Below, in pieces: positions 69-21,684 of a DNA stretch of 24,184 nt. Origin of the DNA: a virus (taxonomy: Duplodnaviria; Caudoviricetes). The position numbers were made by a program, and so were the translations under genes. Below the pieces are notes generated by a model. That model was not told where the DNA came from. It was given only the letters and a program-made list of their open reading frames with translations, and did no database searches. The stretch spans positions 1 through 24,184 of the IMG/VR virus record IMGVR_UViG_3300020044_001866. The stretch is one strand, 5' to 3'. How positions within the stretch are numbered: position 1 is the stretch's first letter; every line of letters begins with the position of its first letter.

Positions 69-415
69 TAGCTGGTCCTCAACTGGGCTATGAGGGTGTT
101 AACTGTATCTCGCAGCACGGCGACATCATACGCCAGTGTCTGGATATCTTGCAACGCCTTTACGTAGTCTGACAAAAGTGGGACGGCTACACCGCTAACC
201 TTTGCGCCAACTGCCTTAGCAGTTAAACCATTGAAAGTATTCGATGCCTGTGCGGTCGTAATGCCTCCGGAAAGCAAAGCTACGCTGGCCCGGTCGGGCT
301 CACCCCGCTGGTTGGTCAGAAGCTCGACATTTTCCTTGAGCGCATACAGGATACGTGCCAGTTGCGGCTCGGTGCTCTCTAAAGAGACAGACGGGATACC
401 GGAGAACCTAGCCAT
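68..415 (-). CDS. Hypothetical virion protein, C-terminal coiled coil (115 aa)
   Basis: TAATG-coupled to the nozzle-like gene; heptad-like C-terminus LQDIQTLAYDVAVLRDTVNTLIAQL. Confidence 0.7.
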   Translation of the reverse strand: MARFSGIPSVSLESTEPQLARILYALKENVELLTNQRGEPDRASVALLSGGITTAQASNTFNGLTAKAVGAKVSGVAVPLLSDYVKALQDIQTLAYDVAVLRDTVNTLIAQLRTS

Positions 416-3075
416 TATACAGCCGCCAATCCAATGGGGGTTTCAGCAATGTGAATAGCCCGGACACGTACTGGACTGTAAATTTCAACTTCAAATGTAT
501 CGCTCTTATATCCAGTTGGTAGCCGGAAGATGCCGCTGTCAGTACGGACTGTCGTAAAGATAAGCTGCTTGTTGATATACAGGTTAAATATGATCGGCAA
601 GCCGCCGTCCCACTGAAGGTCGTACGTATTCCAATTATCGTTTATGGTTTCCCAGATCGGACTATCTATACCGCCGGGGCTGTAGTCGGCAACGACACGC
701 GCAGCGCCAAGGTTCATCGGGGCATCAGTTATGAACACCTTCGACTTCCAGCGCATGGTCATGTTCTGCGGGGTGGGGTTATCCCACTGGTAGATATCGC
801 CGCTGGTGCCGACCGCCGTGTAGAGCGAGTTGGTCTCGTTGTCGTACCACGAAGCACTGTACTGAAAATCAAGGTCAACGAAAGACAGGCCAGTGCCGCC
901 TTCGCCTTCGACGGCCTCTAGTGTAAGGGCCGCAGTAGCGGTCGATCCGATGTAGTTTTCTTTATAGACCGCCCCAACGATTTCCTCAGGGTTTACGTCC
1001 GCGTTCCATGTATCGCTATAATGGACAACTCTGGTCAGAAGCTGAGCACCGCCGCCACCATATACGGCGAGGCCGTCATGCGTAGCCCATACAACACCGA
1101 AACCCGTAGCGACAACGGATGCCGCACTCACACACGGATACATTACAGCAAGTTTCTGCGCGACCATAGTGGCCGGATAGTTACCCTCAACGATGTATGG
1201 GTAACCCCTAGTCAGTACCAATAGAATACCGCCAATAGCAGCAAGAGCCACGATGTCGTACTCAAACGAAATACGGTACTGGCTGGGCCATGCATGGTAC
1301 TGACCCGGCTCACAGAAGTATAGATCGTTACCAACAAAGCCAGCCATCATCTGGTTATGCAAAGCGATAATGCCCTGCATTCCTTCGGGCGGTGCCTCAT
1401 ACTCAGTCGAAGACAGCAGACTGGTTAGACTGAGATAGCTGAAGTCATCAGTAAAAGTATAAACACCACCGTCACCCCAGTAACGAGCAGCATCCGTTTT
1501 GCGTTCAGCGACATCATAATAGACAAGCCCAGTTACGGTTGTCGTAGTGACGGTACCGCCAGCTAATGTGTACTCAAATGCCTTGCCACTGACGATCCGC
1601 GTAACAATAGCACCGGTAAGACTAAGGCTCGGAATAGTGTTGCACACAACCTTGAGCCGATCACCCACAATCAAATTGTGGTAGTCAGCCATAGTGACAC
1701 GGACAGTGTTGCTCGTACGGCTAATCTGCGACATAGCAGCGGGGAACCACAGTGTCTTGAGCAAGAAGAACCCACTGCCAGCCGTGGAACTCAGAGAACG
1801 ATATAGTTTGACGCCGCGAATATTGTTTTTACCGGCAGGAGCGGCAGTCGGCAGGCCAGTGATTATCGCGGTCTGGCCTTCGCGCATGTACACGGGATCG
1901 GTCGGCTCAGAGCCAATGCTCTCCTCGCGCCACGGGGTGTACCACGTATAAAGATACGAGCGCCCTTGCACCTGATCACCGAGATCGACGGTGCCGACAA
2001 CGAGATAAACATTGACGCTACCGCTGGTCGTAGCAGATACAGGCAGAATGACCGTGAAGGTATTCGCGTTTACAACCGTAACATCGTAGGTACCAGACGT
2101 GGCGGTACCGGATGTGAAGTTCAGATAGACAAGCTCACCGGATGCAAGGCCATGGGCGCTAAGCGTAATTGTTGCCGTAGCACTGGCCACCTGTGTGTAA
2201 GTGCCAGCGCGAATTACTGTCGTTGTGGCAATCTCGGGACCAAAAGCAAAATAAGAGATCGTCGTGCTGTTGATAACCGAAACAGACGCAATCGTGTTGA
2301 GGTCGCGGATATCCCACTTTACTTTGCTGGTACTAGCGATAGCACCGGAGGCAGTATCGGTACACGTAAACGTATTCGGTCCAGTTACATTTACGGTATA
2401 GTTATTTGTTGTTGCCCCGCCGGAAGTGAATTCCAGAAAAACAGTGGCACCAGTTGTGAGGCCGTGGTTCGAGATCGTGACTGTAATCTGTGTGCCCGTA
2501 CGCGAATACGTACCGTCGCGGTTAGAAAAACCGCTGATCGAGGCAACAGCGCCAGTCTTCAGATTATGCGGCGCAACCGTCGTTAGCGTGACCTGATTAG
2601 CGTTGTCACGGGCGTAGCTGACAACCGTAGCTGGCGTAAACGACACGACCGAAATAGTCGGCCTAGTCGTCGGAAGGGGAAGCCCGAGATCATAGTAATC
2701 AACGGGGTAAGGGCCGGATGCGCTACCCGTAGTAGCCAGAGAGTAGTTGCTGACCTTGGGTACGCCGTCACCCGTGTAATAGAACCGCCGTTCTTCAAGT
2801 TCGTCAGTGGACGGCGTGGCAATCGACACAAGCGAAGTAAACGACAACCACTTGATCGGTGAACCGGTACCAGCCGTGCTCTCACGCAGACCATAGATGG
2901 TGCGAACTGTTCCGCTACGGTTACTGTCCGCTACAGATACAGGCTCAGGATACGGGATCAGATCACCAGAATACAGCTTACCATTACGGGCAACCTGCGC
3001 GGCTGTATCCGCTAAAAGCTCAGGGCTATTACGGGGTGCCGTACCGATAAACTTAGTGATCTTGATAGCGACCAT
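415..3075 (-). CDS. Tail nozzle / tail tubular protein B-like (stabilisation protein) with inserted beta-rich repeat modules (886 aa)
   Basis: Follows two adaptor genes; beta-propeller-like C-half (GFVGNDLYFCEP..HAWP, WATHDGL, MRWKSKVF); four H[GN]LxxG modules in the N-half. Confidence 0.7.
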   Translation of the reverse strand: MVAIKITKFIGTAPRNSPELLADTAAQVARNGKLYSGDLIPYPEPVSVADSNRSGTVRTIYGLRESTAGTGSPIKWLSFTSLVSIATPSTDELEERRFYYTGDGVPKVSNYSLATTGSASGPYPVDYYDLGLPLPTTRPTISVVSFTPATVVSYARDNANQVTLTTVAPHNLKTGAVASISGFSNRDGTYSRTGTQITVTISNHGLTTGATVFLEFTSGGATTNNYTVNVTGPNTFTCTDTASGAIASTSKVKWDIRDLNTIASVSVINSTTISYFAFGPEIATTTVIRAGTYTQVASATATITLSAHGLASGELVYLNFTSGTATSGTYDVTVVNANTFTVILPVSATTSGSVNVYLVVGTVDLGDQVQGRSYLYTWYTPWREESIGSEPTDPVYMREGQTAIITGLPTAAPAGKNNIRGVKLYRSLSSTAGSGFFLLKTLWFPAAMSQISRTSNTVRVTMADYHNLIVGDRLKVVCNTIPSLSLTGAIVTRIVSGKAFEYTLAGGTVTTTTVTGLVYYDVAERKTDAARYWGDGGVYTFTDDFSYLSLTSLLSSTEYEAPPEGMQGIIALHNQMMAGFVGNDLYFCEPGQYHAWPSQYRISFEYDIVALAAIGGILLVLTRGYPYIVEGNYPATMVAQKLAVMYPCVSAASVVATGFGVVWATHDGLAVYGGGGAQLLTRVVHYSDTWNADVNPEEIVGAVYKENYIGSTATAALTLEAVEGEGGTGLSFVDLDFQYSASWYDNETNSLYTAVGTSGDIYQWDNPTPQNMTMRWKSKVFITDAPMNLGAARVVADYSPGGIDSPIWETINDNWNTYDLQWDGGLPIIFNLYINKQLIFTTVRTDSGIFRLPTGYKSDTFEVEIYSPVRVRAIHIAETPIGLAAV

Positions 3076-3078
3076 TCG

Positions 3079-3849
3079 TTATGCAAACCCATTGCTGCGG
3101 GCAGTCATGCTAGCACGAGCGTTACCTAGATTGGCGCGGGCCCGCCGCTCTGTCATACGGAAAAGGTACTGCCGCGCATGATAGGATGCCAGTGTGTTAT
3201 CGTTCCACACGACTTTTGGCATGACCAGAAGCTGCTGCAGCGCACCATGAACAAGCGCATCTTCAAGATCGCCCATCACGACTTCATCCATACCAGTGGC
3301 GGTACGCGTTGGTTTCAGGGCGTAGAACATCCGGATCGTATAAATACTATCGGTGCCCGGCATAGGCAACACAACATATTTGTCTGGAGTAAGCTGGGTA
3401 AGAACACGCGGCTCACCGCCGCCCTCACTAGCATCAGAGGGGATCGTAACAGTCGTACCGCCGTTGAACAGGGCATCGTTGTACTGATCGTCGTTGAAGC
3501 CATCCATAGGCGTAAGCGACCAGAGATCGGCGGTACTCACCCCGTTGAACTGTTGCGCCCACTCAGGGAACATTTCAATGGCGTCTTCCAAGACAACGCG
3601 CTGCAGCAAGCGACCATTACAGGTTGCACGAAACACTACATGCACATCTGTCTCAGGTGGCTTATCAAACAGATTGATATATGAGCCCGGCAGAATATCG
3701 AACGGCGGCTGCACATAGCGCCATGCAAGGGAAGTTTCGCAGGTGCGGATGGCCACATCGCGGATGTACTGCAGAATGAGCGGCTGCGGCGCGCCCGGTA
3801 CAGACGGCATGATCTTCGGTAACAGGGACGTGAATAGGCGAGTAGCCAT
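3079..3849 (-). CDS. Head-tail adaptor/connector protein (256 aa)
   Basis: VPGAPQPLI..IR..AI..C start, ALKPTRTA and ALVHGALQQLLVMP..W motifs typical of podophage adaptor-like proteins; gene order. Confidence 0.65.
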   Translation of the reverse strand: MATRLFTSLLPKIMPSVPGAPQPLILQYIRDVAIRTCETSLAWRYVQPPFDILPGSYINLFDKPPETDVHVVFRATCNGRLLQRVVLEDAIEMFPEWAQQFNGVSTADLWSLTPMDGFNDDQYNDALFNGGTTVTIPSDASEGGGEPRVLTQLTPDKYVVLPMPGTDSIYTIRMFYALKPTRTATGMDEVVMGDLEDALVHGALQQLLVMPKVVWNDNTLASYHARQYLFRMTERRARANLGNARASMTARSNGFA

Positions 3850-5746: not shown

Positions 5747-6802
5747 TTACGCGATCCGATCCGCCACGACAATGGCAGACGGAGTGGCGGGGATAGCAGG
5801 CGGGCCCGTAACCGCCGCTGTATGGTCAATCGTGACGGCTACGTTCTCAGGAAGCCACATTACTTCGATGTACTGACCGGCAGTGACAGTATCGTAGAAT
5901 ACGATCTGAAAAAATATAGCGCCGCCATCAGTGGATTTTGGGACCGTGACACGCGTAGCGGAGCGGGCAATATCAGTACCGTTCTTGCGTAGCCATATGA
6001 TTACATCATGGTCAGAGTTATCTGAGTTGGCAAATTGCAGGTTAGGTGCAACCATGTAGGTCCCAGCGGCAGCAAAGGTAATGCGCGTCAGGTTCGTACC
6101 ATCCGTGACGATAGAAACTCCATTGCCGTTAATTTCGTTGGTGCCGAACTTGACCGCAGTCGGCGTAGTCGTGCTACCGGTCTGATCAGTAATGTCAGAG
6201 AATGAACCAAACGCACGGCCAGACAGTACACCGAACGAAACAGAGCCGCCTGTAATTGCGACGTTGCTGGCATCCTGCGTGGCAATGGTTCCGAGGCCGA
6301 GTGTCGTACGCTGCGCTGCAGCATCGGCGTCATCCAGAATGGCGCGGCCAGCGGCAGTGATAGTGCCTTCAGCCCAAGTATCTACGCCAGTCGTATAAGC
6401 GTACTTGTCGGCAGCCGTGCCGAGAGCAGCCAGAGATTGAAGCGTGGCATCATAAGCCTGCACGTTTGTGCCGATAGCTAGGCCAAGATTGGTGCGTGCA
6501 GTGGCAGCATCAGAAGCACCAGTGCCGCCATCGACAACAGCAAGATCAGTAATACCAGTGATCGAGCCGCCGGTAATCGTTGGGGTGGAAATAGCCAGCC
6601 CACTTGCGGGGGTAATGGGGGCAATAGAGTTACCGGTAAGACGGACGTTACCGATAGAAATAGAGCCATTCCCGACATTTAGTGCGGTAGCAATACCGTC
6701 ACCGGTACGCACTGGCTTTTCGGTAGCGGCCACACCGCCATCAAGATGCAGAAGCTGCCCGTACGTATCGCGTACCTTGGAGCCTGTAAGTGATGTCGGC
6801 AT
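5747..6802 (-). CDS. Tail fibre-like protein with C-terminal C1q/TNF-like head (351 aa)
   Basis: Fibre shaft motifs LAVVDGGTGASDAATARTNLGL and QAYDATLQSLA; C-terminal ITFAAAGTYMV..WLRKNG..AGQYIEV jelly-roll pattern. Confidence 0.75.
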   Translation of the reverse strand: MPTSLTGSKVRDTYGQLLHLDGGVAATEKPVRTGDGIATALNVGNGSISIGNVRLTGNSIAPITPASGLAISTPTITGGSITGITDLAVVDGGTGASDAATARTNLGLAIGTNVQAYDATLQSLAALGTAADKYAYTTGVDTWAEGTITAAGRAILDDADAAAQRTTLGLGTIATQDASNVAITGGSVSFGVLSGRAFGSFSDITDQTGSTTTPTAVKFGTNEINGNGVSIVTDGTNLTRITFAAAGTYMVAPNLQFANSDNSDHDVIIWLRKNGTDIARSATRVTVPKSTDGGAIFFQIVFYDTVTAGQYIEVMWLPENVAVTIDHTAAVTGPPAIPATPSAIVVADRIA

Positions 6803-6847: not shown

Positions 6848-7225
6848 TTACGAGGCCATAATGACCCAGTTCGTGCCATCGCTAACCAGCATGGCCCAAG
6901 CACCGGCGGTAGCGGCGAGAATAGCCGTACCGGCAGTATCAGAGTTAGCAGGCTTCACGTTGGACGAAGCCGAGATCACCGTATAGGTACCCGACAGGTT
7001 CTTGATGGTGACGACACGACCCGGAGCAGACGAAGCAGCCGGAAGCGTAACAGTCACGTTGGCAGCCGCGCCCTGCACAATCACGAAGTTTTCGTTCGCG
7101 CCAAGCGTAAACGAAGCCGTCTTGATTGCAGGCGGGGCATTGTTGGTAACACGCACACTCTGGAGAACGGCATTACCACTGGTAATGGTTACGTTATCCT
7201 GAGCAATGCCAGTATAAACACCCAT
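6848..7225 (-). CDS. Putative head fibre/decoration protein (125 aa)
   Basis: TVTLPAAS..GRVVTIKN and LVSDGTNW motifs of fibre-tip domains; strong RBS; near the capsid gene. Confidence 0.6.
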   Translation of the reverse strand: MGVYTGIAQDNVTITSGNAVLQSVRVTNNAPPAIKTASFTLGANENFVIVQGAAANVTVTLPAASSAPGRVVTIKNLSGTYTVISASSNVKPANSDTAGTAILAATAGAWAMLVSDGTNWVIMAS

Positions 7226-7242
7226 GAGTTCTCTCTCCTATG

Positions 7243-7267
7243 AAAGGAGGGGGCTTGCGCCCCCGCC
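7243..7267 (-). terminator. GC-rich hairpin / probable leaky terminator
   Basis: GGGGGC-GCAA-GCCCCC (GNRA tetraloop) followed by TCCTTT; short U tract. Confidence 0.55.
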
Positions 7268-7269
7268 AA

Positions 7270-7740
7270 TTACGTTGCGTTGGGGATCGAACCGGGGTTG
7301 GCCATGACATCCACCACGACGATGGACAGGAGCACACGGCACACATCCATACTATTGGAGTCAACCGTCATCACCACGTTGGTGTCAGCGGTGAGCGCAG
7401 CCGCCGTAGTAGCAGCAACGATGGTATTCAGCGTGGTGTTGCAGTCGAAATTGCTGGCAAACAGCGTGAGCGAACCCGTGATGCCGAGGTCGATGGTGGC
7501 AGTAGCACCTTCGGCCTTTAGCAACTTGACCATACCACCGAGGATCATGGAACCCTTTGGCAGGGTCGCAAGCACGAGCGTGTCGGTAGCAGCCAGTGCG
7601 GTAGCACCGGCAGCCGTACGCGCGGCAGCGATCTTGGCAAAGTCGATGGTGTAGTCCATCACATTGAAGTGATTGGTGTACGAGGAGGCAAGGGCGACAG
7701 AACCCTTATTAATGCCGAGGCTGTCAGTATATGCAACCAT
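7270..7740 (-). CDS. Putative capsid cement/decoration protein (156 aa)
   Basis: Immediately downstream of the capsid gene with AAGGAG RBS; beta-sandwich-like D.L.LATLPKG...ATIDLG pattern. Confidence 0.6.
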   Translation of the reverse strand: MVAYTDSLGINKGSVALASSYTNHFNVMDYTIDFAKIAAARTAAGATALAATDTLVLATLPKGSMILGGMVKLLKAEGATATIDLGITGSLTLFASNFDCNTTLNTIVAATTAAALTADTNVVMTVDSNSMDVCRVLLSIVVVDVMANPGSIPNAT

Positions 7741-12882: not shown

Positions 12883-13138
12883 TGGCTGTTGCGCTCTCTA
12901 GCTTAGCTTCAATCCGCTTCAAGGAGTCGGTTATGTAGTTAAGCTGTTGTTCTACTGCGATAATTCGGCCTTCCTGTGACTTGCTGTCCTCGTTCAGCCG
13001 CTCAAGGGTGCTGATCCTGAAATCGACTTCAGTCTTCCATGCCGTACCGACATAGATAATCCCGAGTGTCTGCAGCACCAAAGCTACGATGATGGTGACG
13101 GGTACTTTCTTATCAAGGTGCCATGCTTCAGCCGTCAC
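12869..13138 (-). CDS. Single-TM plus coiled-coil lysis-associated protein (89 aa)
   Basis: WHLDKKVP start, one hydrophobic helix, coiled coil ending SLKRIEAKLE; overlaps the endolysin start; GAGG RBS, GTG start. Confidence 0.7.
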   Translation of the reverse strand: MTAEAWHLDKKVPVTIIVALVLQTLGIIYVGTAWKTEVDFRISTLERLNEDSKSQEGRIIAVEQQLNYITDSLKRIEAKLESATANGQK

Positions 13139-13153
13139 GATCCTAACCTCTAT

Positions 13154-13567
13154 TTAGACACCAAGATTACCAGCAGCTACAAACGTATTCGCCACGGGGC
13201 AGATCAGCGAAATAACCGCATACTGACCCATCGTACTGAACAGACTGGAATATGATACCAAGGTCTGGCTGTTCGCTGCAACAGTAACTTTACCTGCGCC
13301 GCCCTGAAGAATGGTGCAGTTAAACCCGGCCCCGAGCCCTGCCGCACAGTTGATGGTTACAGCAGAACCACTGGTGCAGTAGATGATCTTGCCGTTGTCA
13401 GTAGCCGACAGAGTACGGGTCGTACCGCTTTCAGTCACGATGACACCGGTCAGCAACTGCTGAACCGTTACCTTCTTCGTGGTGCTGCTCTGAACAGCAG
13501 GAAGCTCTTCCGTAAGCGCCAGCGGCGTTGTTACAGCAGTCAACTGAGAGATTTTTTTATCAGGCAT
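13154..13567 (-). CDS. Short fibre/spike protein (137 aa)
   Basis: N-terminal MPDKKISQL...TKKVTV module; C-terminal TLSATDNGK...QGGAGKVTV...GQYAVISL fibre-tip-like domain. Confidence 0.65.
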   Translation of the reverse strand: MPDKKISQLTAVTTPLALTEELPAVQSSTTKKVTVQQLLTGVIVTESGTTRTLSATDNGKIIYCTSGSAVTINCAAGLGAGFNCTILQGGAGKVTVAANSQTLVSYSSLFSTMGQYAVISLICPVANTFVAAGNLGV

Positions 13568-13623
13568 TTACTTGTCCTCTAAATTGGCCTGTGCAGCACG
13601 ATTTGTTACGGTAGTCAAAAGGG

Positions 13624-15033
13624 TTAGATTTGCGACCAGTTACCCGTGCTGGAATTGTAGGAGAACGTGTACGCGCGGTTCGTAACCAAGGCGAGGTTGA
13701 CGCCGCCGGTCAGCAAAAACTGCCCGGTTCCGCCGCCGCCAAGATGCGCCAGTGTGGTGTTGGCGTCGCCAGCCGTAATGGTAAGTTTAGTTCCGAGTAT
13801 TCGCGGGACGTTGGCCGTCCGGTTGATAGTGGTAGGCGCGGCGTTCAACACAAAAATTGAGTTATACAGACCACCTTGCGCCACAAGAATATTGTTGTCC
13901 AAGGTAGACGTTGTAGCCGAGCGGGTAACACTTAAAATGCTTTCATTGCTGGTAGTTTGAAACCAATCAGTCAACGGCGTAGCGTCTGCTACAACAGCAC
14001 TATTTAACCTCACGTAAGGGATCGAATTGCCAAAGGACGTACGAGACTGATTTATAACTGCGCCGACATTTGTTGTTCCGCTTAGGTTTACAACTGCAGT
14101 AGAACCAGCATTAAGACCAAAGTTACAGCTCATAATCTGAGTGGCAAATGTATTTTTTAGGTCTACGCCAATTGTTGCAGAACCTCCTGATGGATAACCA
14201 CGGCAATTTGTAATAAAAAGAGATACAACGCCGAGGCTTGCTGTTCCTGTCCATCCATAGCCTGCACGAACGTAACAAGTCGACGGATTTTCTATGTTAA
14301 TACCGTCAAGTTTAATGTCCAAACACGCATAGGTACTTCCGGCTGCTTCACCAATGCGGATTGGTATGCCTGTGCTTTCAATTGCGCCGCCAAGGACAGT
14401 CCCAGTGGGGCAGCGGTCTATATCCAAGCCTGATACAGCACCAACACCGCCAGAAGCGATATAGTTTTCTTTGAATGAAAATGCTGTAGCATAGTCCAGC
14501 CACACTTGGGCAGTGCCGCTTGACCCGTTATTCTTAAACAAACATCCGCTTACGACTGGTTGGTTAGAATTAGCAATCACCAAACCATATTCGGTCGCAC
14601 CATTAAACTGGCAGTCTCTGATATTGGGCGCGTGAGCGTAATTAATAGATATGCCACGTTTAGCGCCCGATACACAATTAATCTGAAGTTCAGCAATCGT
14701 ACCCCAATATTGGTAGACCCCTATTCCTGACGAAAAGGTAAGACCTGTCGTAACAGAGGCACCTGAAAACTGCAGTATTGATCCGTTATGCTTCCCTTCA
14801 CCTACGATAGAAAACCCATATTGGGAATTTGCTGGTGTAGGAACCGTGATATTTGACGTTAGCAGATATGTACCAGCAGGAATAAACAAAGTCTTTCTTT
14901 GTGCTACCGCAGCAGCAATAGCCGCGTTCATCGCAGATGTGTCGTTATCTGCGCCGTTTCCCTTCGCGCCGTAATCCAAAATATTAAGGTAAGCGCCGGA
15001 AATCATAGAGTAGGTAGCTTTGGTCAAGCCCAT
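13624..15033 (-). CDS. Tailspike / putative polysaccharide depolymerase, right-handed beta-helix (469 aa)
   Basis: Pectate_lyase_3-type start NILDYGAKGNG..DTSAMNAAI...LFIPAGTY; Asn/Gly beta-helix rungs. Confidence 0.8.
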   Translation of the reverse strand: MGLTKATYSMISGAYLNILDYGAKGNGADNDTSAMNAAIAAAVAQRKTLFIPAGTYLLTSNITVPTPANSQYGFSIVGEGKHNGSILQFSGASVTTGLTFSSGIGVYQYWGTIAELQINCVSGAKRGISINYAHAPNIRDCQFNGATEYGLVIANSNQPVVSGCLFKNNGSSGTAQVWLDYATAFSFKENYIASGGVGAVSGLDIDRCPTGTVLGGAIESTGIPIRIGEAAGSTYACLDIKLDGINIENPSTCYVRAGYGWTGTASLGVVSLFITNCRGYPSGGSATIGVDLKNTFATQIMSCNFGLNAGSTAVVNLSGTTNVGAVINQSRTSFGNSIPYVRLNSAVVADATPLTDWFQTTSNESILSVTRSATTSTLDNNILVAQGGLYNSIFVLNAAPTTINRTANVPRILGTKLTITAGDANTTLAHLGGGGTGQFLLTGGVNLALVTNRAYTFSYNSSTGNWSQI

Positions 15034-15040
15034 GTTAACC

Positions 15041-16291
15041 TCACTTTGAGAACGCTTGAACTTCAGCGTTCAAAAGACGCTGCGGCCAATATTGAATTTT
15101 ACGTGCGTGGCCATTCATGTACGGGCCACTTAACCTATTACCAATTCCCATCTGTGACACTGTAGGGATAGTACCAGTGCTATCTGTACCGGGTGTGCCT
15201 CCGTTCAAGGCGGCAACAAAGCTATTAGCTTTATATGCTCCGACCATCTTAAACACAGTGTTTAATGTAAGAGCTCCGGTATCTATAGAGCATTGCGTAC
15301 CGCTGTTACTTACCTGAAGAGCAGGCGCGGCAGCCGTAAACATAATTAAATCAATACTAACAGCGTTAGATACGCCGTTAGACATTTGGGTGAAGTTTAC
15401 AGTTGTAGAACCTTGATCTACAAAAATAGACCCTTCAAACGAAATCGTACCTTCGCTGGCGTTATACCAATCGCTGAAGTTGGTACCCGTCATATTCACA
15501 TCATCGGCGTTTCTTGTCAGGCTTGTGGTCGTCGTCGGAATGTAACTGGTGGCAAATGCACCTGCTTCAAGCTGGGCACCCCACATGAATACGCCAGACG
15601 TTCCATCTCCTTGATACGAGACGGAACCCGCAGCATTTGCTAAAAACAAGACGAGCAAGGGCGCAAAGGCCGAGACCGTTGTATAAGTCATGCTACAACG
15701 ATACCAATTATTTCCAGCAGGCGTTACTACACCAGTTGCACCACCAACAACTGTAGTAGCAGTCAAAGCCGTTAAGTCAAACAAAACGGCATAAGAGGTA
15801 GATGCTGACTGTTGAAGTCTGAACTTAGTACGTCCGGATGCTTTAACATACATTGAATATGTATAAGTACCAATAGGCTGACTAGTGCCTACAGCTTGGT
15901 AGATATCGTGAGCTGACGTTGCTAAGTTCTCAACCAGTTTATCGGCTGATGTTGTTCCATCTGGCGCTGTTTCCGTTGATACGTTTGGACTAACCGTAGC
16001 TGCGTCTAAAAACCAAACACCAGCATTATCAAATTCAGCCGACCGGATAAGCAAATTTGCCCGCGTTAACTCAATCAGCAAGCCTTTTGGTGCAAGAGTT
16101 ATAGGATCGTAGTCAAATCTAGGAAGGTTAGCGTTAACCGTTTCAATATATCCGCTGCTATTAACACGAGTAGCTGTGTTGAGCGCACGGGTTATAGTTA
16201 CACGGCTGTCTAAAGATGCAGTTGTAAAGTCCAACGCTAAACGCGGAAGAACTCGTTCAGTTGCAGTTGGGCTGTATGCGGGAGTTATCAT
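15041..16291 (-). CDS. Spike/fibre protein with carbohydrate-binding-like and LamG-like domains (416 aa)
   Basis: ATRVNSSG...PRFDYDP...GLLIE..RANL and WGAQLEAGAFATSYIPT...TRNAD motifs recurrent in phage head-spike/fibre proteins. Confidence 0.7.
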   Translation of the reverse strand: MITPAYSPTATERVLPRLALDFTTASLDSRVTITRALNTATRVNSSGYIETVNANLPRFDYDPITLAPKGLLIELTRANLLIRSAEFDNAGVWFLDAATVSPNVSTETAPDGTTSADKLVENLATSAHDIYQAVGTSQPIGTYTYSMYVKASGRTKFRLQQSASTSYAVLFDLTALTATTVVGGATGVVTPAGNNWYRCSMTYTTVSAFAPLLVLFLANAAGSVSYQGDGTSGVFMWGAQLEAGAFATSYIPTTTTSLTRNADDVNMTGTNFSDWYNASEGTISFEGSIFVDQGSTTVNFTQMSNGVSNAVSIDLIMFTAAAPALQVSNSGTQCSIDTGALTLNTVFKMVGAYKANSFVAALNGGTPGTDSTGTIPTVSQMGIGNRLSGPYMNGHARKIQYWPQRLLNAEVQAFSK

Positions 16292-16303
16292 TGACCAGCC
16301 TCC

Positions 16304-18529
16304 TTAGCCGATGAGTTTCCAATCGGCAGTCGTAAGCCCAGTTGATTTATACCAGTTATTGGCGGCAGTATCTAAATACTCTTGGCCAACAAAGAATGGT
16401 GTTACTACACCGATAGGTGATACAGCAGCCTGTCGAAAACCCTGAAAAGCAGCAGGGACAAGCTGATGCGCTTCAGTAGCAACTGTAACGGTTCCGCTTA
16501 CTGTCGAAGTAGCATTGCTATCCAATGTGATTGTGCTGTAATCTGCCGCGCGTGAGACTACGCGCCTTTGTTCTGTAGCAGACGCATAACCAGCAGAAAC
16601 AGTCACCCAATCACCAACTTCGGTTGGAAAGAAGCCGCTAGCGCGTGTAAGCGTTGCGCTACCACTAACTGTAGAACATGCTGCGTAACTGTTACCAGTA
16701 TCCTTGCTATGACGCTGCGACCACCACAGTGCTATATCACCCGTTTGCGATACGGTATGGACAACAATTTCACCGGGAGTAAGTCTAGCCCCGTTGAATG
16801 TCCAGCCGCTTGTAGCACTGGTTCTTAGCATTGGAATAGCGTTTGAGAAGTTTCCCCATTTGTCACGGTGGACCAACTTGTTTGCCCACCAGTTATCTGT
16901 AAAAAGCTTACGGTTTGTTACCGTATCGCGAGCGCGGCTGAACAATTCAAGATCATCACCAGCAAGTGAACAATCAGAATAGAAACCGTCGCCGGGGAAC
17001 ACTAGATCAGGTGCGAAAAGTCCGGTGATAGTAATCTGTGTTGCTGGATCAATATCACTAGCACTCTCTGCAAATCGTGCAACGCTCTGGGTACTCAATC
17101 CGGCAATGACAACAGACCTAGTTCCACTGGTTGTAGAAAGAATAGAACGGGTATTGGCAAGATAACCAGACAAAGTACATTGCCGAACATCACCTAGATC
17201 AAGTAGCTTGGTGTTTGCCGGAATGCCTCCCGAATAGCCCATCCCCGGACGAAGATTGATTGTAAGATCAGATTGGTAGAAAGCACCAACCGTTCCTGTT
17301 CTACCCCAACGGAATGCATATCCTGCATCTGTACGAGGGACATTCTCCATATAAATGTCAAACTCGACGCTATTTGCTTTTTCGGCAATTGCTACGCTAT
17401 CGACACTTTCGACGGTGCCAACAATCCTGATACCAAACAGAGCGAAATCGTACATTAGATAGGCAATTGGACCATAGGAAATATAAGCATCAATAACAGT
17501 AGTCGTAGATACGCCACTTCCCGTTCCCAAGAGATTGCTACACTCAACACCGCATACAGAGAAGCCCTGAACACCGCCACTAAGTCTGCAGTCAATCCAT
17601 GTTTCTATACGGACCCAACGACTAATTCCGCCATAAGCAAAGAAGTCAATATCACCATTATAGAGATAGGGTAGGTCTAGACAGTAAACTGTGTTTGTTC
17701 CATTACCGTTGACGCAAAATCCCTTAATTGTTGCGCCCTTAAAAACATAGCTAGACGGAGCAGTTTTCCATGCAAATAGGCGACTTGGCGTTGTCGGTCT
17801 AAACTTAATTTTGCAACGGCTGTTTGAATACTGTGCTACCCCACCTGAACCTTGCAAATTAGCCCCGTAAGGAAGTTGCAATCCAGTGGTAATTAAGTAT
17901 TCGCCATCAGGGATATACAGTGGAACTTCGGCATCAAGTGCTGCCTGAAAAGCATCTGTATCATCATCAGTACCATTGCCAATCGCGCCAAAATCTTTGA
18001 CGGAGACAGTTTCACGAAGCTTAGCCTGAACTGTGCGTATTGCAGCGCCTGTACCAGACTGAAAGAAGCCTACCAAATTCGATCCGGCGGGGGCGTACAA
18101 AGCTAAGTCAGCCGCCTCAAGTGCATCCGTACGTGCATCAAGCGCATCAACACGCCCGTTAATTGCAACGTCTTCGGCTTCCAAAGCATCGAGTTCGGTG
18201 GTGATATCAACCACGACTTGGGCTGCGCCATCATCGACAGCATCATAGATCGACTGCGCCGTGACCCGCATGTCGATGCGGGCTCCGGACGGGAATGCTT
18301 GTGCTGCCGTGCCCTCCTGCGCGCGTGCGATGCTGAGCACGTTCCCAACGCGAGAAGCTACTTTGACAATCTCCAGCGCGCCAGTGGGTGCTACCAGAGT
18401 AGCGTAAAAATATTGCCCAGAAGTCGGAGTCGGAAAACGGTTACCGTCCGTCACCGTCAGCGAAACACTGCTGGCCGTGATATCGGCTGCTAGGGTGGTG
18501 GAAACGTTGTTGGTAAGAATTACGGTCAT
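16304..18529 (-). CDS. Tailspike with N-terminal virion-attachment domain and beta-helix (741 aa)
   Basis: N-terminal domain shared with 20506-21201; coiled-coil neck; RTVQAKLRETVSVKDFGAIGNG.DDDT.AFQAA pectate_lyase_3 motif. Confidence 0.82.
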   Translation of the reverse strand: MTVILTNNVSTTLAADITASSVSLTVTDGNRFPTPTSGQYFYATLVAPTGALEIVKVASRVGNVLSIARAQEGTAAQAFPSGARIDMRVTAQSIYDAVDDGAAQVVVDITTELDALEAEDVAINGRVDALDARTDALEAADLALYAPAGSNLVGFFQSGTGAAIRTVQAKLRETVSVKDFGAIGNGTDDDTDAFQAALDAEVPLYIPDGEYLITTGLQLPYGANLQGSGGVAQYSNSRCKIKFRPTTPSRLFAWKTAPSSYVFKGATIKGFCVNGNGTNTVYCLDLPYLYNGDIDFFAYGGISRWVRIETWIDCRLSGGVQGFSVCGVECSNLLGTGSGVSTTTVIDAYISYGPIAYLMYDFALFGIRIVGTVESVDSVAIAEKANSVEFDIYMENVPRTDAGYAFRWGRTGTVGAFYQSDLTINLRPGMGYSGGIPANTKLLDLGDVRQCTLSGYLANTRSILSTTSGTRSVVIAGLSTQSVARFAESASDIDPATQITITGLFAPDLVFPGDGFYSDCSLAGDDLELFSRARDTVTNRKLFTDNWWANKLVHRDKWGNFSNAIPMLRTSATSGWTFNGARLTPGEIVVHTVSQTGDIALWWSQRHSKDTGNSYAACSTVSGSATLTRASGFFPTEVGDWVTVSAGYASATEQRRVVSRAADYSTITLDSNATSTVSGTVTVATEAHQLVPAAFQGFRQAAVSPIGVVTPFFVGQEYLDTAANNWYKSTGLTTADWKLIG

Positions 18530-18859
18530 TTACTTTGGACCCTGCTTTTTAGCGGCATAACGATCAAGCAATGCCCGCCCTTTACTCTTGGCATCTGCTT
18601 TGGATGAAGCACCCCACGCCTGCAAACTCAAGAGCAACCGCGTCGGCTGCCCCTTGGCATCACGCTCAGGCCCCGGTGAGCCCCCCATACGCGTAAGGAA
18701 CGAACCCTTACGTCGCATCTGCTCAGGCCCCGTAGGCGTACCTTTGACGGGTGCCTTGAGGTTCATCCCCTGTGCTTTGGCAGACGCACGGCCAGCAGCA
18801 TTCAACCCGCCTTTGGGGTTCTGCCCTACCTTACGTTGCCAAGCCGGGGTCTTGGCCAT
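18530..18859 (-). CDS. Basic phage protein, DUF6321-like (109 aa)
   Basis: AWQRK.GQNPKGGLNAAGRAS...SFLTRM.G...PTRL.LSL.AWG recalled as a conserved phage family; family name from memory. Confidence 0.75.
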   Translation of the reverse strand: MAKTPAWQRKVGQNPKGGLNAAGRASAKAQGMNLKAPVKGTPTGPEQMRRKGSFLTRMGGSPGPERDAKGQPTRLLLSLQAWGASSKADAKSKGRALLDRYAAKKQGPK

Positions 18860-18960
18860 TACTTCTTACCCTTGGCCATGCAGCGGCCCATGGCCTTGCA
18901 CTTGCCCGGATTGGGGCACTTGGAGCAGGGAGTGAACTTCGGCATCGGCTTCTTGGCCAT
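18859..18960 (-). CDS. 33 aa Lys-rich four-Cys microprotein (not in ORF track)
   Basis: MAKKPMPKFTPCSKCPNPGKCKAMGRCMAKGKK; GAAAGGG RBS; TAATG coupling to the next gene; fills the gap. Confidence 0.75.
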   Translation of the reverse strand: MAKKPMPKFTPCSKCPNPGKCKAMGRCMAKGKK

Positions 18961-18974
18961 GGTACGTCCCTTTC

Positions 18975-19901
18975 TTAGAAGCGGCTAGTTCCGGGGTTAA
19001 CTTTAGATGGTTCTGTGCGGGCAGGTGCCGAAGTTGGACCGCTAGAAGGTCCTTTGCTGCTTGTCGTGGAGCGCGACGGACCACTGTTAGCCCCAAGCGG
19101 ACCGGCGGGGCCTTTGTTGCTCGATCCGCCTGAACGAGACGGGCCGCTATTGGGGCCATTCGGACCGGCAGGACCTCTGCTGTTGCTCGATCCACCCGAA
19201 CGTGACGGACCACTGTTAGCACCGAGCGGGCCTGCTGGTCCCTTGCTATTGCCCGATCCGCCTGAACGAGACGGGCCGCTATTGGGGCGGCTGGCTGATT
19301 GCAAGTCACCTTTACCGCCTGCGACCTTGGGGGCTGAACCATACGACCCGCCAAACGCGGTGACACCTCGCCCACCAGTCACAGAAATCTTGCCCGGTCG
19401 AGATGGCGCTGTGCGGTTAGGTGCGCTGAGCGAACCGCCGCCGGGGCCTTTACCCTTTGAATTTCCGGCCATGAGCGGGCCTGATGGCTTTGCTTCAAAT
19501 CCATCGCCAGTAGGTGTGGTCATACCTACCAAAGCGCCAACCGGACCGGCGGCTCGCAGCGCACCGCGAGCAACACCCCCAGCAACAGTTTTGGCAGCAT
19601 TGGCAACCTTTGAAGCCATCGAGGGAGCTTTAGGCCCATAAGCGTATTTACCGGAGTTTATCGTCCACCCTTTAGGCGGTTTGTTTGCATTGCTTGGCTT
19701 TGATGAAAACTCAGGATCAGTAACATCGAGTTTGGGTCGGACATTTGTGTTAGCGGGCTTGCGCGCGGATTCAAGCGTACGTAGCAGCCCCTTATAAGAG
19801 CTGTCGGGCTTAGAACCAAAAGACTTAACGCTACCGCGACTAGTCATCGTAGTGTTTGCGCGAGGGCTTCTGCTGGACATTCTGGATACGTTATTTGCCA
19901 T
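18975..19901 (-). CDS. Basic G/S/P/K-rich disordered repeat protein (308 aa)
   Basis: Fills the gap between coupled genes; very few acidic or aromatic residues; tandem 21-22 aa repeats. Confidence 0.75.
   Translation of the reverse strand: MANNVSRMSSRSPRANTTMTSRGSVKSFGSKPDSSYKGLLRTLESARKPANTNVRPKLDVTDPEFSSKPSNANKPPKGWTINSGKYAYGPKAPSMASKVANAAKTVAGGVARGALRAAGPVGALVGMTTPTGDGFEAKPSGPLMAGNSKGKGPGGGSLSAPNRTAPSRPGKISVTGGRGVTAFGGSYGSAPKVAGGKGDLQSASRPNSGPSRSGGSGNSKGPAGPLGANSGPSRSGGSSNSRGPAGPNGPNSGPSRSGGSSNKGPAGPLGANSGPSRSTTSSKGPSSGPTSAPARTEPSKVNPGTSRF
19045..19290. repeat. Coding tandem repeat, ~66 bp unit, about four copies
   Basis: NSGPSRS recurs four times; 35 bp exact match at 19122-19156 and 19254-19288. 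Confidence 0.9.
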
Positions 19902-19909
19902 AATCTATC

Positions 19910-20143
19910 CTATCGAAATCTTGAGATTTTCTTGGCGATGGTCGCCGGTTGAGGCACGAACTGTTTACCCTTGGCCTTGCCAGAACGCTTGGCCCTAGTT
20001 GTAGCAGCATATTCTGACGGAGACAAAGCCTTGATAGCCGCTTCCGGCAGGTATCGCTCACCCGTCTTGGAAGACGGCTTGCCGGACTTCGTGCGCCATT
20101 TCTGCGCGGTCCATGCCTTCAGAGACTGCTGCGAAGGCTTCAT
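19910..20143 (-). CDS. Small basic protein (77 aa)
   Basis: SQQSLKAWT.QKWRTKSGKPS..TGERYLP...KGKQFV; ATGA overlap; 19 K/R vs 3 E. Confidence 0.8.
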   Translation of the reverse strand: MKPSQQSLKAWTAQKWRTKSGKPSSKTGERYLPEAAIKALSPSEYAATTRAKRSGKAKGKQFVPQPATIAKKISRFR

Positions 20144-20328
20144 GACGTGTAGCCCCCGCCCTTGGACTTGTACTGCTTGGCCAGAAGCTGTGCTTTACGG
20201 GCGGACCACTGCCCTGCCTTGGTGCCCTGCACCGGAGCTGCCTTGATCTTCTCGAACAGCGTCTTGCGCATACCGGGCTTGGTGTAGTTCCCAGCAGCGT
20301 TAACTTTGGATTGAGCGGATTTCTTCAC
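20140..20328 (-). CDS. Small basic protein (62 aa)
   Basis: NYTKP.MRK...GQWSARKAQLLA..YK.KGGGY; GTGA overlap; 14 K/R vs 1 E. Confidence 0.8.
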   Translation of the reverse strand: MKKSAQSKVNAAGNYTKPGMRKTLFEKIKAAPVQGTKAGQWSARKAQLLAKQYKSKGGGYTS

Positions 20329-20504
20329 TTATTGAAGCCCTTGAGTGTCTGAGCGAGGCGGGCACGCTGACCCATCTTACCGCCCTTCTTGGCAGCCGCA
20401 GCCAGTGTCTTGGCGGGGATGTTCTTGCCCTTGGGCGTGCCAAGCTGAGCACGAAGAGCACCCGGCTTCTTGATGGCACCAGCAATCCAGTTCTTACCCT
20501 TCAT
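20325..20504 (-). CDS. Small basic protein (59 aa; not in ORF track)
   Basis: MKGKNWIAGAIKKPGALRAQLGTPKGKNIPAKTLAAAAKKGGKMGQRARLAQTLKGFNK; GAGGT RBS; 15 K/R and no D/E. Confidence 0.8.
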   Translation of the reverse strand: MKGKNWIAGAIKKPGALRAQLGTPKGKNIPAKTLAAAAKKGGKMGQRARLAQTLKGFNK

Positions 20505-20505
20505 G

Positions 20506-21201
20506 TTACCTCACAAGGACTTCGATAACTGAGTTAAGCGGCGGTGCTTCGGAAAACGTCAGGGTTGTACCGGCCACTGTATAGGTGGACTTATTCTGAT
20601 ACACACCGTTGATGTGGATACTGGTGATATTCTTGATACCGAGCGTCGAAGTAAGGGTAAACGCAACAGTCGAACCATTACCGGTAAAGTTATCTATATT
20701 GGGCGTACGAAGCTCTTGTAGCGCCGTTTCTACGTTCGTTGCTGCATAGCGATTACCTACATCGGTAATTGTTACGTCAGCCGCAGCGCCACCTTGGGTG
20801 CTAACCTGAGCAATAGCGTCCTGAACATTGGTCGCAGTGATAGGTCCTGTCGGGACAAAGCTGATCTCAGATGCCTGATCCTTCAGTGCCACGCGGTCAG
20901 CAATGGCATCAATTACGGACTGGGCCGTAACCCGCAGATCAATTCGGCTTCCATCCGGAAACGCAATGGCTGTAGTGCCTTCCTGCGCACGAACGATAGT
21001 AAGGATATCGCTAACACGCGAAGTACACTTTACAACTTCGTAAAGACCAGTGGGTGAAATAAGGGTCGCATAAAAATACTGCCCCGCACTCAATGCAGGG
21101 AAGTTAACACCAGTGCCAGCAGATACAGCTACGGATGTAGATGATGCTGTAAGCGACCCAACAATCGAGCTTGAGGTATTGTTCTTAAGAACGACAGCCA
21201 T
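20506..21201 (-). CDS. Fibre/adaptor virion protein (231 aa)
   Basis: N-terminal domain paralogous to 16304-18529; two ATNV.xA shaft repeats; C-terminal FTGNGSTVAFTL...TLTFSEAP module. Confidence 0.75.
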   Translation of the reverse strand: MAVVLKNNTSSSIVGSLTASSTSVAVSAGTGVNFPALSAGQYFYATLISPTGLYEVVKCTSRVSDILTIVRAQEGTTAIAFPDGSRIDLRVTAQSVIDAIADRVALKDQASEISFVPTGPITATNVQDAIAQVSTQGGAAADVTITDVGNRYAATNVETALQELRTPNIDNFTGNGSTVAFTLTSTLGIKNITSIHINGVYQNKSTYTVAGTTLTFSEAPPLNSVIEVLVR

Positions 21202-21203
21202 GG

Positions 21204-21329
21204 TTACTCCAGCAGGATATACGAGCCGTCTTCTTGCAACAGGTCGTCGCCGTCCTCAGACAGCAGGTTGTTCAGCAGAGCCGATGTCTGCCTCCGTACC
21301 CGCCGCATGATGAGGACAATGTTCAGCAC
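21204..21329 (-). CDS. 41 aa microprotein with LLxEDG repeats (not in ORF track)
   Basis: GTG start 1 nt after the upstream stop; (M)LNIVLIMRRVRRQTSALLNNLLSEDGDDLLQEDGSYILLE; ends 2 nt before the next ATG. Confidence 0.65.
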   Translation of the reverse strand: MLNIVLIMRRVRRQTSALLNNLLSEDGDDLLQEDGSYILLE

Positions 21330-21330
21330 G

Positions 21331-21684
21331 TCAGCCCCGCAGGACCATGGTCACGTTAATGGAATTGGCCGAGCCGCTGGTCACAACCGGTCGGAGATAA
21401 ACCGCTGCAGTGGTGAACTCGAACAGCGCCGCCGACGTGGCGCTGATGACCGTGCCGCCCAAGTCCTTGATGTCGAAGTAGGTAACACCATCGTTCGACG
21501 CCTGCAAGCCAACCGTGGCACCACCGAAGGTACCGCCGATCTGGACACAACCCGCCACAGCAGCCTGCGCTGCAACGATGAGCGGATCAATCGTATCGCC
21601 CGTGACGATAGCAGCCCACACCGTCCGAGGCACTTTCGAAGACTGCGCCTGAACAAAACTAAATGCAGGAGAAACGGTCGCCAT
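21331..21684 (-). CDS. Putative virion beta-sandwich protein, possible spike base (117 aa)
   Basis: VQIGGTFGGATV.LQASNDG...YLRP pattern; first gene after the promoter at 21720-21748. Confidence 0.6.
   Translation of the reverse strand: MATVSPAFSFVQAQSSKVPRTVWAAIVTGDTIDPLIVAAQAAVAGCVQIGGTFGGATVGLQASNDGVTYFDIKDLGGTVISATSAALFEFTTAAVYLRPVVTSGSANSINVTMVLRG

Follow-up and report, generated by a model that had tools for sequence, protein, structure and literature searches.

The DNA analysed here, IMG/VR virus record IMGVR_UViG_3300020044_001866, is a whole contig of about 24 kb (positions 1 to 24,184; hereafter the window) that carries the structural module of a podophage, with every gene on the minus strand and with terminase, portal, capsid, two adaptors and nozzle all encoded. 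By sequence comparison it is a GP4-like podophage, the reference being Ralstonia phage GP4 (PDB 8JOV; Zheng et al. 2023, J Mol Biol): the nozzle matches the GP4 nozzle chain 8jov_A (E 3e-62), adaptor II matches GP4 gp81 (E 4e-9) and the N-terminus of the LxNN fibre matches the GP4 fibre chain 8jov_1 (E 3e-20), and the window thus contains the two adaptors, GP4-type nozzle and LxNN fibre of a GP4/Bcep22-like tail. Alongside these lie fibre and spike genes with distinctive short N-terminal modules (KKIS, LTK, LTG, LxNN and MITP, after their motifs), three short triple repeats (EDG, in a microprotein; W, in a nozzle loop; FN, in a loop of adaptor II) and two small domains (FTG, the C-terminal FTGNG domain of a 231-amino-acid (aa) protein, and the C-terminal domain of a 137-aa protein), all of which are located in Table 1. 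We describe the presence, homologies, co-distribution and mobility of these motifs, from which the three repeats and two domains are likely to be interchangeable snap-on joints for host-recognition fibres.

Table 1. Fibre starts, repeats, small domains and the proteins that carry them in the window.
Feature	Position	Strand	Basis
LTGSKVRDTY motif	6761-6790	-	sequence
KKISQL motif	13541-13558	-	sequence
LTKATYSMI motif	15001-15027	-	sequence
W-x6-W-x6-W loop inside nozzle (gene 415-3075)	607..654	-	
FN-x3-YN-x3-FN loop inside adaptor II (gene 3079-3849)	3460..3498	-	
351-aa tail fibre with LTG..DTY N-terminal module	5747..6802	-	PHROG tail fibre matches
137-aa putative two-ended adaptor: KKISQL module (residues 1-45) and C-terminal domain (residues 46-137)	13154..13567	-	
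469-aa beta-helix tailspike, N-terminal anchor a short LTK peptide alone	13624..15033	-	PF12708
416-aa fibre starting MITPAYSP, homologue of RcGTA head fibre Rcc01080	15041..16291	-	phmmer
741-aa beta-helix tailspike with LxNN anchor domain	16304..18529	-	Pfam PF12708, PHROG tail spike/fibre
231-aa putative adaptor: LxNN anchor domain (residues 1-99) and C-terminal FTGNG domain (from residue 168)	20506..21201	-	
41-aa microprotein: alternating hydrophobic N-terminus and three 8-residue LLxEDG-type units (21207-21266)	21204..21329	-	
117-aa jelly-roll protein, likely pentameric head-spike base (oligomer and location inferred)	21331..21684	-	AF2 model

A first-pass annotation of this DNA had proposed a code of four pairs, EDG with KKIS, FTG with LTK, W with LTG and FN with LxNN. 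All the N-termini and motifs that it named are present, on the minus strand; the span 13154-21684 that it assigned to the whole set is too narrow, since the LTG gene and the loops with the W and FN repeats fall outside. Of the fibre or spike genes that it listed, at least six in number, two have products that resemble adaptors rather than receptor-binding spikes, namely the KKISQL protein of 137 aa and the LxNN protein of 231 aa. The LTK spike was correctly described as nearly anchorless, its beta-helix match beginning at residue 16, and the LTK start is conserved across 122 loci. The protein starting MITPAYSP is a homologue of Rcc01080, the head fibre of the Rhodobacter capsulatus gene transfer agent (RcGTA; chain 6tb9_F3, phmmer E 2e-37), and its reading as a beta-helix spike was rejected. 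The KKISQL module has at least 7995 homologues and is N-terminal in all 120 examined, and no KKIS-EDG fusion was found among the best 120. Compared with GP4 gp81, which lacks query residues ~98-143, the FN loop is inserted sequence, and it is kept in relatives, as is the microprotein, whose GTG start lies 1 base past the stop of the upstream 117-aa gene. The FTG profile matches a K64-1-type depolymerase (9K4A, E 2.5e-7), a tail adaptor (7Y22, 2.6e-6) and the P-SCSP1u fibre (8I4M, 4e-5); T4 gp10, G7C and CBA120 chains are absent among the matches listed. For the C-terminal domain of the 137-aa protein, no match was found among PDB sequences, and the Atlas leads are weak.

Co-occurrence was assessed in loci fetched with flanks of up to 10 kb and centred on each N-terminal module (here called the plug, with the repeat or domain paired with it called the socket). 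These comprised 80 KKIS loci kept of 190 confirmed, 120 LTG and 122 LTK loci (flanks for 80 each), 80 of 141 MITP loci and, for LxNN, 45 genome contigs and 125 viral ones (flanks for 80); the 369 loci of at least 6 kb were reduced to 290 by dereplication. In these 290 loci the EDG repeat was found in 45/106 loci with KKIS versus 1/184 without, the strict W repeat in 21/54 with LTG..DTY versus 0/236, the strict FN pattern in 15/97 with LxNN versus 1/193, the relaxed FN pattern in 55/97 versus 20/193, and the FTG domain in 71/98 with LTK versus 10/192. Residue shuffles of the same open reading frames (ORFs) gave on average 0.4, 0, 0 and 2.8 loci for EDG, W, strict FN and relaxed FN, against 45, 20, 15 and 50 observed, and only 0-4 pattern matches per set lay on the opposite strand.

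Because KKIS and LTK often occur in one family, their pairs were also tested conditionally. Among LTK-bearing loci, EDG is present in 28/67 with KKIS and in 0/31 without; among KKIS-bearing loci, FTG is present in 48/67 with LTK and in 4/39 without. The cross pairs are null, EDG among KKIS loci being as frequent with LTK (28/67) as without (17/39) and FTG among LTK loci as frequent with KKIS (48/67) as without (23/31). EDG thus depends on KKIS and not on LTK, and FTG on LTK and not on KKIS. The same associations are seen when the loci are collapsed into 75 gene-content groups (socket with plug versus without: EDG 10/21 versus 1/54, W 9/18 versus 0/57, relaxed FN 15/29 versus 9/46, FTG 17/22 versus 2/53). 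The four pairings of the first-pass annotation are therefore non-independent, with off-diagonal pairs fading once the cognate partner is given, and to this extent they have genomic support. FTG and LTK were called in one ORF in 1/290 loci, a match that looks spurious.

A fifth pair, which had been overlooked together with its head-spike context, involves the MITPAYSP fibre. A search for genes enriched beside MITP fibres, in 41 loci against 106, returned the C-terminal domain of the 137-aa protein, which is present in 33/41 loci with the fibre versus 3/249 without; among KKIS loci the figures are 18/18 and 3/88. Its two members lie 0.5-3.6 kb from each other, with either one first, and the domain is found behind several different N-terminal plugs. 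This distribution makes the 137-aa protein look like a two-ended adaptor whose C-terminal domain would be the partner of the MITPAYSP fibre. MITPAYSP has no link to FTG, which is present in 11/30 loci with MITP versus 70/260 without.

We contend, with a probability of about 0.76, that the fibre apparatus is built from mutually specific joints, on the simplest reading three with triple repeats and two between a domain and a peptide, laid out as follows. In three of the joints a single chain with three tandem repeats would offer one repeat to each subunit of a trimeric start; trimers are suggested by homology for the LxNN proteins and the spikes, and are assumed for KKIS and LTG. On the head, the hydrophobic N-terminus of one microprotein would be gripped by a pentamer of the 117-aa jelly-roll protein. 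The three LLxEDG units of the microprotein would then bind the 137-aa KKISQL adaptor as a trimer, and the Rcc01080-like fibre would be attached to the C-terminal domain of this adaptor. On the tail, FN loops of the adaptor II ring would hold trimers of the LxNN domain (741-aa spike and 231-aa adaptor), the FTGNG domain of the 231-aa adaptor would act as a branching domain for the LTK tailspike, and W loops of the nozzle would hold the LTG..DTY fibre. The binding, the copy numbers and the assignment to head or tail are all putative.

The socket gene stands immediately before its cognate plug gene in 13/106 loci for EDG-KKIS, 13/54 for W-LTG and 16/97 for FN-LxNN, and non-cognate repeats stand there in 0-2. 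All four pairs pass on co-occurrence, but adjacency is poorest for FTGNG-LTK, as the gene immediately after the FTG gene is a KKIS gene in 41/106 loci and an LTK gene in 3/98. This order would be expected if the pairs were functional and some of them indirect or mis-assigned, with FTG, for example, binding LTK, MLK-type and perhaps KKIS starts and the set not being strictly orthogonal. Such an arrangement, which we consider unlikely, would also account for the MLK-type N-termini, which are found in the KKIS slot and are accompanied by FTG in 16/17 loci, always alongside LTK, and for the two LxNN proteins of the window, which share one socket type; it is opposed by the conditional tests, which split FTG-LTK from FTG-KKIS and EDG-KKIS from EDG-LTK. 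Starts of the MLKTVSS, MLKVANS and MLKAAP types recur in L303-L378 (LTK loci) in the slot otherwise held by KKIS proteins, and MLK-type starts are candidates for further plugs.

The adjacency of many socket and plug genes, and samples dominated by few families (the largest gene-content group holds 82/290 loci), could also be produced by cassette hitch-hiking, in which linked motif and module genes travel together without binding each other. We give this little credence, as the repeats recur in unrelated hosts, as the insertions into core genes lie kilobases from the plug gene (W 5 kb and FN at least 13 kb in the window) and as the fifth pair occurs in either gene order. With the motif masked, the host proteins form 16 clusters for EDG, 10 for W and 21 for FN, and hosts of at least 120 aa are present in 5, 4 and 20 of these respectively; short hosts are over-split in this clustering and a few FN matches are probably due to chance. 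Among the hosts are a P22-type head-closure protein, GP4-type nozzles (two nozzle families are represented), adaptor II, a match to the major-tail-protein family, siphophage tail proteins and microproteins, and the repeat is at the C-terminus of the host in 40/50 EDG and 13/21 W matches. Members of one family of small cysteine-rich proteins differ in the repeat at their end, which is EDG in P0122 and P0131 and W in L193, where an LTG gene follows the gene of the W-ending protein. A single nozzle at L005 (10861-13590) carries both EDG and W repeats, and an EDG microprotein is encoded by this genome as well.

The nozzle itself offers a further case of exchange consistent with the proposed joints. 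One loop of GP4-type nozzles carries the W repeat, or a helical arm ending in an FN-type repeat (GP4 and its relatives), or nothing, and among 38 loci of at least 9 kb with such a nozzle 8 have both W loop and LTG, 1 the W loop only, none LTG only and 29 neither. That the repeats are autonomous structural or ligand-binding motifs (for calcium, glycans or self-association) of fibre-rich aquatic phages would suit the acidic or aromatic character of EDG and W, which is common in such motifs, and is nonetheless very improbable, as neither the tracking of one module by each repeat nor the nozzle swap would be predicted. The nozzle of GP4, gp74, has an FN-type triple repeat at about residues 482-494; a shorter repeat opens gp79, and LxNN genes number two in this phage. 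PDB 8JOV contains both the 18-chain LxNN fibre and the 6-chain nozzle; the 18-chain fibre (fibre III) is reportedly seated on the nozzle. In L101 (4886-5167) and L105 (19577-19894), GP4 gp77-like small proteins lie between a rope-like gene and the LxNN fibre, and the rope-like genes of these two distant phages start with an FN-type repeat. The nozzle of the window is ~310 aa longer than that of GP4, and its insertions show weak similarity to an endosialidase beta-barrel domain.

Several named phages conform to the pairing, of which DSL-LC05, R6L and F10 lie outside the 290-locus sample. The gene order in DSL-LC05 is small beta protein, EDG microprotein, FTG adaptor, KKIS fibre and LTK spike. 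In the Erythrobacter siphophage R6L, the C-terminus of gp79 is a variant triple repeat of 8-residue units, missed by the strict EDG pattern, and a KKISEL gene follows immediately. In siphophage F10, an FN-type triple repeat opens gp16, and the next gene is the LxNN gene. Mwe-JY07 and a Manatee Spring phage also fit. A tblastn search with the LTG module found no named phage. A Flavobacterium siphophage was rejected as a KKIS case, having internal KKIS-like stretches without KIS and no EDG repeat in 17 kb.

A number of points weigh against the system of specific joints. All of its support is genomic, and co-occurrence cannot demonstrate contact; the loci were sampled by plug and kin are not independent. 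The same loci had already been inspected when the strict patterns for EDG and W and the profile for FTG were settled; the relaxed FN pattern had been set before the LxNN loci were fetched. Strict FN is confined to 2/29 LxNN groups, the 20 loci with relaxed FN and no LxNN have to be reckoned with, and so does the position of FTG before KKIS. The plug is without a visible socket in 61/106 KKIS, 33/54 LTG and 42/97 LxNN loci, in which the sequence was cut at 10 kb and of which several carry degenerate repeats. In myophage ECML-117, which carries an LxNN-type fibre, 50 of the 67 kb show no clear FN-type repeat. In crAss001, gp22 has a weak KKIS-like stretch (E 0.005) without a KIS start and docks via residues 1-26 into a three-chain hub, and the strict EDG repeat was not seen in 37 kb of this phage.

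The head part of the proposal starts from the 117-aa protein, whose AlphaFold2 (AF2) model has a pLDDT of 96 and best matches XepA and YomS (Z 11.0, root-mean-square deviation 3.0-3.4, 101-102 residues aligned; next Z 8.0), in agreement with an Atlas lead. XepA and YomS are pentameric. Such a protein precedes the microprotein in L001, L002, L004, L005, L028, L146 and L471, and in related loci the gene before an EDG- or W-bearing microprotein usually encodes 90-120 aa, with Ile/Leu-Gly repeats frequent at the start of the microprotein; the microprotein of the window has only an alternating hydrophobic stretch, while those of related loci bear the Leu/Ile-Gly repeats. We infer from fold and gene order that the 117-aa protein may form a pentamer on capsid vertices. 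The RcGTA head spike is alike in its jelly-roll base and homologous fibre body, and in it one peptide of repeated (iso)leucines contacts five base subunits, binding the Rcc01079 pentamer as a five-point star (PMC7296036). There the pentamer-binding peptide is on the fibre itself, whereas here the microprotein and KKIS adaptor would sit between base and fibre; the Rcc01080 homologue starts MITPAYSP and has no Ile/Leu-Gly repeats at its N-terminus. Rcc01079 was not retrieved for the 117-aa protein, either by profile search or among the structural matches listed.

Other features of the window concern its fibre genes and capsid region. GC content is 0.45-0.52 at 13001-18000, over fibre genes, and 0.53-0.60 in the rest, which is expected of exchanged receptor-binding genes. 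The fibre cluster is split at 18530-20504 by small basic low-complexity genes (a DUF6321 protein, a Gly/Ser/Pro repeat protein and three Lys-rich ORFs of 59-77 aa), and L001 has a similar run. Two small genes 3' of the capsid gene (6848-7740; 156 and 125 aa), without family matches, probably encode decoration proteins.

The wider claim, which we rate a little better than even, is that tailed phages share a few portable and mutually specific one-chain-to-trimer tags (8-residue LLxEDG, 7-residue W and 5-residue FN-type) for any virion protein, together with microproteins that turn five-fold vertices into three-fold docks in a four-tier head appendage. If this is so, the tag tells which fibre sits where, phage microproteins and loops now classed as hypothetical can be read in their thousands, and fibre position can be predicted from sequence in thousands of uncultured phages. 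It would then be explained how fibres change place among head, neck and tail, and pass from podophages to siphophages or back, while core proteins stay as they are, and several short, probably orthogonal peptide-trimer connectors would be gained. One pair, FN-LxNN, can be checked in the deposited coordinates of 8JOV.

The first-pass annotation knew of no earlier description of such a code. Peptide docking on branching domains is already in print: a conserved N-terminal peptide docks a secondary spike on a T4gp10-like/XD branching domain, carried by the primary fibre or by a short adaptor, in KP32, KP34, K1-5/SP6, G7C and CBA120, as validated by deletion and swaps (PMC6872550, PMC13352976). A mobile, mutually specific set of triple repeats was not found in the literature searched (excluding supplements and subscription papers), where these repeats are nowhere treated as portable, mutually specific tags, and the motif strings used as queries returned no phage paper. 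The KP34-type heptapeptide MALxxLV resembles the LTK start of the window, and the branching-domain systems, in the portions of these papers at hand, correspond to the FTG-LTK type of joint only, with no single-chain triple-repeat plugs and no set of several joints per virion. One chain gripping a fibre trimer is known from the arm and hand of p2 Dit (PMC7472080) and the fibre docking loop of Mu gp48 (PMC11915804); these are described as fixed parts of one baseplate protein, not as portable motifs moved among unrelated virion proteins. Docking of the rope type is reported for GP4 relatives (PMC13730344). GP4 itself shares with the window phage a homologous nozzle, adaptor II and LxNN fibre start, yet has its FN-type triple repeat in the nozzle, whereas the window phage has the W repeat in that nozzle loop and bears its FN repeat on adaptor II.

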